Translations under genes and position numbers: made by a program
The notes under the pieces: model-generated
The model's input: the letters and a program-made list of their open reading frames with translations, nothing else
Database searches by the model: none
Told to the model about the DNA's origin: nothing
Shown here: piece by piece, positions 33,027 through 33,685 of the stretch
Layout: each line of letters opens with the position of its first letter
Position numbering within the stretch: position 1 is the first letter of the stretch
Assembly (NCBI RefSeq): GCF_002854065.1
Contig: NZ_CP024147.1
Strand: one strand, 5' to 3'
From: Escherichia coli
GTDB taxonomy: Bacteria > Pseudomonadota > Gammaproteobacteria > Enterobacterales > Enterobacteriaceae
DNA length: 64,000 bases

Positions 33027-33479
33027 TTAAAAGTGGGGAACCAGGTTCGCCTTCTGGATATTACTCAGCGCGAACACTTCATCTTTACCTTCGACGGTAA
33101 CTGTGATCATTTCACCGTCTACCGCTTTGATAACGCCCTGCCATTTACGACGGTTTTGTACCGCCATACGGAGAACCAGAGTCACCTCTTCTCCGACAAA
33201 ACGGGCGTAGTGTTCAGCCGTGAACAGTGGGCGATCGAGACCCGGTGAGGAGACTTCCAGGTTATAAGCAACGGTGATGGGATCTTCAACATCCAGCACA
33301 GCACTTACCTGGTGGCTCACATCAGCACAATCATCAACATTGATGCCATCTTCACTATCAATATAGATGCGCAGTGTGGATGTGCGACCGCGAATAAATT
33401 CGATGCCAACCAGTTCAAAACCCAGGGCCTCAACTGGCGCAGTAATCATCTCTGTTAATTTTTGCTCTAATGTGGACAA
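33027..33479 (-). CDS. rimP: ribosome maturation factor RimP
   Basis: ORF-track 33027..33491; three in-frame non-AUG starts (TTG 33491, GTG 33485, TTG 33479); TTG at 33479 gives the 150-aa RimP ([11 protein letters not shown]...). Confidence 0.85.
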
Positions 33480-33540
33480 GCCCACCCCCAAGACATAAAA
33501 AAAGGGCCTAAAGCCCAGTTATTCTGTAGTCAGATAACAA

Positions 33541-33565
33541 AAAACCCCGATAAATCGGGGCTTTA
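33541..33565 (-). terminator. intrinsic terminator/attenuator between metY and rimP
   Basis: On the minus strand: agccccgatttatcggggtttt, a stem-loop followed by a U-run. Confidence 0.6.
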
Positions 33566-33685
33566 TATAACTGAACCCTATAACCGCAACTGCGGTCTGG
33601 AGCACTTTCCAGAAGGATTTTTTCAAATCCCACTACGAAGGCCGAAGTCTTCACAGTATATTTGAAAAAGAACTCTAAGGGAAAG

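Follow-up and report, generated by a model that had tools for sequence, protein, structure and literature searches.

A U-run hairpin between metY and rimP in an Escherichia coli strain and its identification with the leader terminator t1

Genes and features of the metY-rimP leader

The window analyzed in this study is a stretch of 64,000 nucleotides of E. coli contig NZ_CP024147.1 (assembly GCF_002854065.1). In this window, metY is followed by a leader of 206 nt and then by rimP, nusA and infB on the minus strand, and all of the leader features described here are on that strand as well. A window coordinate is converted to a K-12 MG1655 coordinate by adding 3,284,527, and the same offset was obtained from metY and from the rimP stop codon. 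The features identified, in the direction of transcription, are as follows.

33884-33855, minus strand: sigma-70 promoter with TTGACA, an 18-nt spacer and TATAAT (12 of 12 consensus positions), about 90 nt upstream of metY
33807-33778, minus strand: weaker promoter-like site, which fits P0
33686..33762, minus strand: metY, initiator tRNA-Met, G46 allele (tRNA annotation, Rfam and comparison with K-12)
33619..33669, minus strand: long hairpin with an RNase III site (folding, published site, cloning primer and conserved block)
33597..33612, minus strand: weakly supported hairpin CUGGA-AAGUGC-UCCAG (80% paired; CG-to-UA exchange at one pair, 13 sequences)
33583..33596, minus strand: small covarying hairpin ACCGC-AGUU-GCGGU, the second palindrome (exact match, folding and pair counts)
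33567..33579, minus strand: conserved box AGGGUUCAGUUAU just 5' of t1, the 5' strand of a predicted long-range helix (RF01770 upper-case consensus)
33541..33564, minus strand: t1 stem-loop, first stem of RF01770 (terminator scan, folding and exact match)
33536..33544, minus strand: t1 U-tract UUUUUUGUU (sequence; invariant in 71 of 71 orthologs; published boundary at K-12 3318065)
33511..33522, minus strand: AUAACUGGGCUU, the 3' strand of the predicted long-range helix, overlapping the t2 5' arm (RNAalifold, pair counts and energies)
33504..33516, minus strand: t2 stem-loop GGGCU-UUA-GGCCC, the universal GGGc...gCCC motif of rimP leaders (scan, Rfam and folding)
33497..33503, minus strand: t2 U-tract, U7 (sequence, scan and Rfam)
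33481..33489, minus strand: rimP Shine-Dalgarno G-run GGGGGUGGG (sequence), predicted to be able to pair with the t2 3' arm
33027..33479, minus strand: rimP coding sequence with a TTG start, the first protein gene of the operon (open reading frame; same start in the K-12 annotation)

The promoter at 33884-33855 fits P-1, which is described as matching the consensus completely (Brandi et al., 2019; PMC6511841). In that description of the E. coli operon, P-1 and P0 are upstream of metY, P2 is downstream of it, two RNase III sites are found, two terminators (t1 and t2) are upstream of rimP and the operon is regulated by NusA (Brandi et al., 2019). The order found in the window, P-1, P0, metY, P2/RNase III site, t1, t2 and rimP, is that of the same locus. 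The window strain is, however, not K-12: its metY has G at tRNA position 46 (GAAGGTCG), whereas that of K-12 has A (GAAGATCG); the leader itself is the same in both. With G46, the gene encodes tRNA-fMet1 in the form that has been described for B strains of E. coli, MRE600 for example. A 501-nt query around t1 matched 5,422 complete E. coli genomes at an identity of at least 99%. In E. coli, argG adjoins metY on the opposite strand, while in most Enterobacterales outside the Enterobacteriaceae secG and tRNA-Leu(GAG) are found within about 150 nt upstream of metY; the leader downstream of metY is unaffected by these differing neighbors.

Immediately downstream of metY, the hairpin at 33619-33669 contains the RNase III site that was mapped to K-12 position 3318176, which is window position 33649, and cleavage there was reported to yield an RNA resembling the P2 transcript (Gordon et al., 2017; PMC5371410). 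The conserved P2 -10 box TATACT (33660-33655) is in the 5' half of this hairpin, and transcripts from P2 begin at about 33649, as do those cut by RNase III. The rimP 5'UTR clone of Adams (2021) also starts at 33649 (primer GACTTCGG), which agrees with an RNase III product that resembles the P2 transcript (PMC5371410). While the block TTTTTCAAATATACT is conserved within this region, the inner stem and loop of the hairpin vary widely between species (67% identity). The earlier note on this DNA had proposed a comparison of the U-run hairpin with the mapped RNase III sites; because position 33649 is in this other, longer hairpin, RNase III processing occurs about 85 nt upstream of t1 and not within it. 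An RNase III site inside t1 was therefore rejected, given that its stem has just 10 bp; neither a mapped cleavage inside it nor a stem of about two helical turns, the marks of an RNase III processing hairpin, was found for t1.

The second, smaller palindrome that the earlier note had placed between the U-run hairpin and the tRNA, ccgcaactgcgg, does occur once in that interval, but at 33584-33595 instead of 33587-33598, an offset of 3 nt. Folded alone, the hairpin ACCGC-AGUU-GCGGU had an energy of -7.1 kcal/mol (z = -2.6). We collected rimP-anchored loci from 80 Enterobacteriaceae species, which yielded 62 distinct leaders, that of the window included. Across these leaders, four of the five pairs of the small hairpin change on both sides, with pair counts of 32:27 for A-U/G-C, 51:7 for C-G/U-A, 57:3 for G-C/A-U and 58:2 for C-G/U-A, and 98.7% of the cells are paired. 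In distant genera its place is occupied by hairpins of other sequence, and two lineages are without it. The small hairpin is thus a true RNA hairpin that has been conserved, although the Rfam structure does not contain it. We found no published role for it in the literature on the leader that was accessible to us.

Anatomy and identity of the U-run hairpin

The sequence quoted in the earlier note, agccccgatttatcggggtttt, occurs once in the window as an exact match (33541-33562, minus strand), and a terminator scan extended this 22-mer to the stem-loop AAAGCCCCGA-UUUA-UCGGGGUUUU at 33564-33541. Its stem of 10 bp, with five G-C pairs and a loop of 4 nt, is followed by TTGTTATCTG; the 3' flank begins with UUGUU, and the U-tract reads U6-G-UU. 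The first four U of this tract also base-pair with the A-tract. When folded alone, the hairpin had an energy of -14.1 kcal/mol, compared to a mean of -4.4 kcal/mol for shuffled sequences (z = -4.16, or about -4.2), and none of 200 shuffled sequences was as stable. The window thus holds what defines an intrinsic terminator, a stable G+C-rich stem-loop with a U-tract directly after it. The earlier note had described a stem-loop with a U-run that follows metY by about 120 nt and precedes rimP, and this description was accurate: the hairpin starts 121 nt 3' of metY, and it precedes the rimP start codon by 61 nt. A second terminator-like hairpin, t2 (33516-33497), was not mentioned in that note.

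The Rfam family RF01770 ("Gammaproteobacteria rimP leader") was defined by Naville and Gautheret (2010; PMC2965389), who described a universal GGGc...gCCC terminator before rimP and, upstream of it, the CCCg...cGGG hairpin, with which it forms a tandem of terminators. Over the t1/t2 element, the window is identical to the sequence given for E. coli in Supplementary data 1 of that paper (PMC2965389). RF01770 matched 33597-33497 on the minus strand with 102 bits (gathering score of 47; E = 5e-18) over its full length (model positions 1-102 of 102), with t1 as the first of the two model stems. The match is directly upstream of rimP, which nusA and infB follow on that strand, and both the scan and the structure line of the model give the tandem CCCg...cGGG and GGGc...gCCC hairpins, each followed by a U-run. 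In its two U-run hairpins and its position before rimP, the window shows no difference from the family and is a seed-like member. The RF01770 structure includes neither the small covarying hairpin at 33583-33596 nor the predicted long-range helix.

From its place as the first U-run hairpin downstream of P2 in the published order, we take the hairpin at 33564-33541 to be the one named t1. Terminators t1 and t2 of the metY-nusA-infB (metY-rpsO) operon reportedly go back to Ishii in 1984, Regnier and Grunberg-Manago in 1989 and Bae in 2000. The identification as t1 follows from the order of elements given by Brandi et al. (2019). That E. coli attenuates and processes the metY-nusA-infB leader, as the earlier note stated, is borne out by the RF01770 score and by the t1/t2 terminators, RNase III sites and P2 promoter already described (PMC6511841). 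The stem-loop is real and, as the long-known t1 that is already catalogued in RF01770, very probably functional but ordinary. There is nothing new in its existence or general role, and the finding is a correct rediscovery.

Other readings of the same stretch were rejected. That the element also acts on the plus strand, be it in bidirectional termination or as a small RNA, was dismissed given the poor T-run on that strand (CTTTATATAA); the plus-strand Rfam matches arise from the palindrome and are below threshold (STnc430, 26.6 bits vs. 47; rimP, 23.6 bits), and no plus-strand gene converging on t1 was found among the open reading frames of the window. Two possible leader peptides were also discarded. 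The 48-aa open reading frame at 33654-33508 crosses ortholog indels that are not multiples of three. The 9-codon open reading frame at 33467-33496 on the minus strand (ATG TCT TGG GGG TGG GCT TGT CCA CAT TAG) begins immediately downstream of the t2 U-tract and runs into the rimP start in a different frame; the ATG at 33496 is lost in 5 of 71 sequences, where it is ACG or ATT, and this frame is probably not a gene.

Conservation and alternative pairing in the leader

The t1 stem and U-tract have a mean identity of 98.8% to the window in the 61 other Enterobacteriaceae species, and the block from the AGGG box to t2 (33497-33579, minus strand) has a mean identity of 95.4% in the same 61 species. 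In rimP of these genomes, 70.3% of the synonymous third positions are identical, as are 97.3% of the first and second codon positions. By this comparison, the block from the AGGG box to t2 is under purifying selection on its primary sequence, of a strength like that on amino-acid-determining positions. Across the 62 leaders, 99.4% of the t1 cells are paired and six of the ten pairs never vary, while the changes in the stem are all one-sided with pairing kept (G.U to A-U in 8 sequences and C-G to U-G in 3). Ten distant Enterobacterales genera, Yersinia, Serratia, Pectobacterium, Dickeya, Edwardsiella, Xenorhabdus, Photorhabdus, Sodalis, Tatumella and Erwinia, have an unchanged t1 stem and a variable loop; their RF01770 scores range from 84 to 103 bits, and metY is upstream in all of them. 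The CCCCG/CGGGG core of t1 persists further, in Vibrio, Photobacterium, Idiomarina and Pseudoalteromonas, and the pair below this core runs through a G.U, A-U and G-C series across that set, which hints at covariation. Within Enterobacterales, no two-sided change was found in any t1 stem pair, and the stem is too conserved there for a test of covariation. The predicted t1 structure is compatible with every sequence seen, and its conservation agrees with the suggestion of Naville and Gautheret (2010) that the sequence itself, beyond its fold, is recognized or constrained by overlapping functions. It should also be mentioned that many database RimP entries are 187-209 aa long instead of 150 aa; they look like gene calls extended through the t1/t2 leader, and their overlong N-termini look like an annotation artefact.

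One possible source of such constraint is base pairing between distant parts of the leader. The box at 33567-33579 is invariant or nearly so in orthologs (core AGGGUUCAG, consensus AGGGUYCAGU), and the GGGC/GCCC of t2, which is just before the rimP ribosome-binding site, is invariant in the 62 leaders. A predicted helix of GGGUUCAGU with ACUGGGCUU (33570-33578 with 33511-33519) encloses t1 and competes with the t2 5' arm. Tentatively, t1 might be less a simple constitutive terminator than one member of a chain of such pairings, in which the box AGGGUYCAGU would pair with the t2 5' arm ACUGGGCU, enclose t1 and block the t2 hairpin, the freed t2 3' arm (GCCCUU) would pair with the Shine-Dalgarno G-run, and folding of the t1 domain would decide both termination at t2 and translation of rimP; we regard this chain, taken as a whole, as possible but well short of probable. 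Run without guidance on 71 orthologs, RNAalifold predicted three helices, namely t1, one of GGU.YCAGU with ACUGGGCU around t1, and one in which the t2 3' arm is paired to the Shine-Dalgarno G-run; within Enterobacterales, however, both strands of the long-range helix are near-invariant, and RNAalifold reported 0 covarying pairs. In minimum-energy folds of the growing E. coli transcript, the long-range helix was adopted once the t2 5' arm had been made, and the conformer with t1 and t2 and that with the long-range helix were predicted to be within 0-1.9 kcal/mol of each other in 71 of 71 orthologs. With regard to a classical attenuator, which has a mutually exclusive antiterminator, the only alternative pairing to t1 itself in these folds was a weak, transient 5-bp GGGUU/AGCCC helix. 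By fixed-register pair counts, an 8-bp core of the long-range helix is kept in Vibrio, Photobacterium, Idiomarina and Pseudoalteromonas, and thus out to Vibrionales and Alteromonadales. One-sided changes (U.G to C-G and G-C to G.U) keep the pairing, and compensatory changes are found in Idiomarina (CAGUGUUC/GAACACUG) and Pseudoalteromonas (CCAGAA/UUCUGG), but in those two lineages only, and several Enterobacterales, Yersinia and Serratia among them, have mismatches at positions 10-12 of the helix. Furthermore, the G3-4/C3-4 runs of the leader can pair promiscuously, and the two strands are perhaps conserved for separate reasons, the t2 motif being universal. The predicted helix may be what Naville and Gautheret (2010) called the antiterminator, and it is a reasonable hypothesis, on these folding predictions, that it is how read-through of t1 could condition t2.

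The same conservation bears on the reading that the hairpin acts chiefly as an operator for a protein or in RNA processing or stability, with termination as a secondary effect; it could, for instance, be bound by NusA, RimP or an RNase, or shield the metY precursor as a 3' cap. The primary sequence is conserved far beyond the needs of a terminator (98.8% vs. 70.3% at synonymous positions), RNase III cleavage and other processing do occur in the leader (PMC6511841; PMC5371410), and Naville and Gautheret (2010; PMC2965389) saw in conservation of this kind a sign that a protein, for instance NusA, recognizes the sequence. The overlapping alternative pairings and the constraints on the A-tract and U-tract could, however, account for much of this conservation. 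RNase III was mapped to a longer hairpin, about 85 nt upstream, and with its 10 bp the t1 stem would be a short substrate for this enzyme. Such a role would also be compatible with termination, and we consider it unlikely that it is the main one.

Transcript boundary and attenuation at t1

The canonical RNA release point of an intrinsic terminator is about 7 nt beyond the G+C stem. For t1, this point is window position 33538, the G right after U6, which is 7 nt past the stem. In the DirectRNA-seq data of Adams (2021, supplementary file 2), a transcript boundary that heads a termination region is listed at K-12 3318065 on the minus strand, which is this very position. With regard to the 3'-end mapping that the earlier note had called for, this DirectRNA-seq boundary is at the expected place, while in the curated Term-seq 3'-end lists of the same study (supplementary files 1 and 3) no end is given for 33180xx-33181xx on the strand of t1. 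At 3318065, 4269 reads upstream compared to 196 downstream were counted without bicyclomycin in 800-nt windows (Adams, 2021), a 22-fold drop that overstates termination at t1 given that the upstream window includes metY. With bicyclomycin, the counts were 3527 upstream and 481 downstream, with a Rho score of 2.97 and p = 1.3e-38 (Adams, 2021). In the same study, expression of a lacZ fusion to the rimP 5'UTR and open reading frame went down, not up, in the rho R66S mutant, for which the authors suggested indirect effects (Adams, 2021). Because this fusion fell in a rho mutant, the modest effect of bicyclomycin at 3318065 may be indirect too.

That Rho makes this boundary and the hairpin merely marks the edge of a Rho-dependent termination region is very improbable and was rejected as the main cause: the site is among the Rho termination regions of Adams (2021) and its downstream/upstream ratio rises 2.97-fold with bicyclomycin, but most of the drop persists with the drug and is Rho-independent, the boundary coincides with the very nucleotide at which a perfect intrinsic terminator canonically releases its RNA, and the rimP fusion decreased in the rho mutant.

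With a probability of roughly 0.9, we have in this hairpin t1, the first in a tandem of Rho-independent terminators in the metY-rimP-nusA-infB leader, where it attenuates the operon. The reading as a terminator is based on its canonical anatomy, its membership in RF01770, its extreme conservation and its match to the published boundary, all of which were obtained in this study, while the name t1, the role as a terminator, the NusA feedback and the antitermination by CspA-family proteins come from the literature. RNA polymerase initiating upstream of metY (P-1 or P0) or shortly downstream of it (P2) would transcribe the t1 stem and the U6-G-UU tract, and most complexes would release their RNA about 7 nt past the stem, which would end the metY precursor and attenuate transcription into rimP-nusA-infB. 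The fraction that reads through would reach the weaker t2 just before the rimP ribosome-binding site and then rimP-nusA-infB. By this mechanism, t1 would set the basal level of attenuation and end the tRNA transcript. Judged from its anatomy, the weak 4-5-bp hairpin of t2 is a likelier target of NusA than t1.

Negative feedback of NusA on the E. coli operon is attributed to Bylund (2011), as cited in Brandi et al. (2019; PMC6511841). Antitermination by CspA/C/E at a terminator within metY-rpsO is cited in PMC9765468 and PMC11648934, both of which cite Bae et al. (2000) for termination in vitro and Csp antitermination in the operon. Brandi et al. (2019; PMC6511841), however, disputed Csp antitermination as the cause of cold induction and observed no new read-through RNA species after cold shock. 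In Bacillus subtilis, nusA has been shown to be autoregulated through leader termination that NusA stimulates (Mondal et al., 2016, as summarized in PMC12288461). As in E. coli, an intrinsic terminator with negative feedback by NusA is located in the 5' leader of rimP-nusA-infB in B. subtilis (PMC12288461) and, by prediction, in Streptococcus agalactiae (PMC4448216). The leaders of these two species have a single weak terminator of the GGGc...gCCC type, the equivalent of t2, whereas t1 of E. coli is an extra, strong and canonical terminator that is found only in some Gammaproteobacteria.

As t1, the hairpin would control how much of the transcription from the metY promoters and P2 reaches rimP, nusA and infB, which are central to ribosome assembly, transcription elongation and translation initiation, and it would be part of the classic NusA feedback loop. 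More speculatively, and in our view doubtful as it stands, the rimP leader of Enterobacterales, Vibrionales and Alteromonadales might be a multi-state RNA switch, in which the box AGGGUYCAGU would pair in turn with the t1 5' arm, transiently, and with the t2 5' arm, the t2 3' arm would alternate between t2 and the Shine-Dalgarno sequence, and the small hairpin at 33583-33596 would insulate the folding or bind a factor. Were this true, the switch would couple read-through of t1 to t2 termination and to rimP translation, and the sequence conservation of the leader would reflect overlapping pairing constraints, possibly those of a sensor for NusA or for the status of ribosome assembly.
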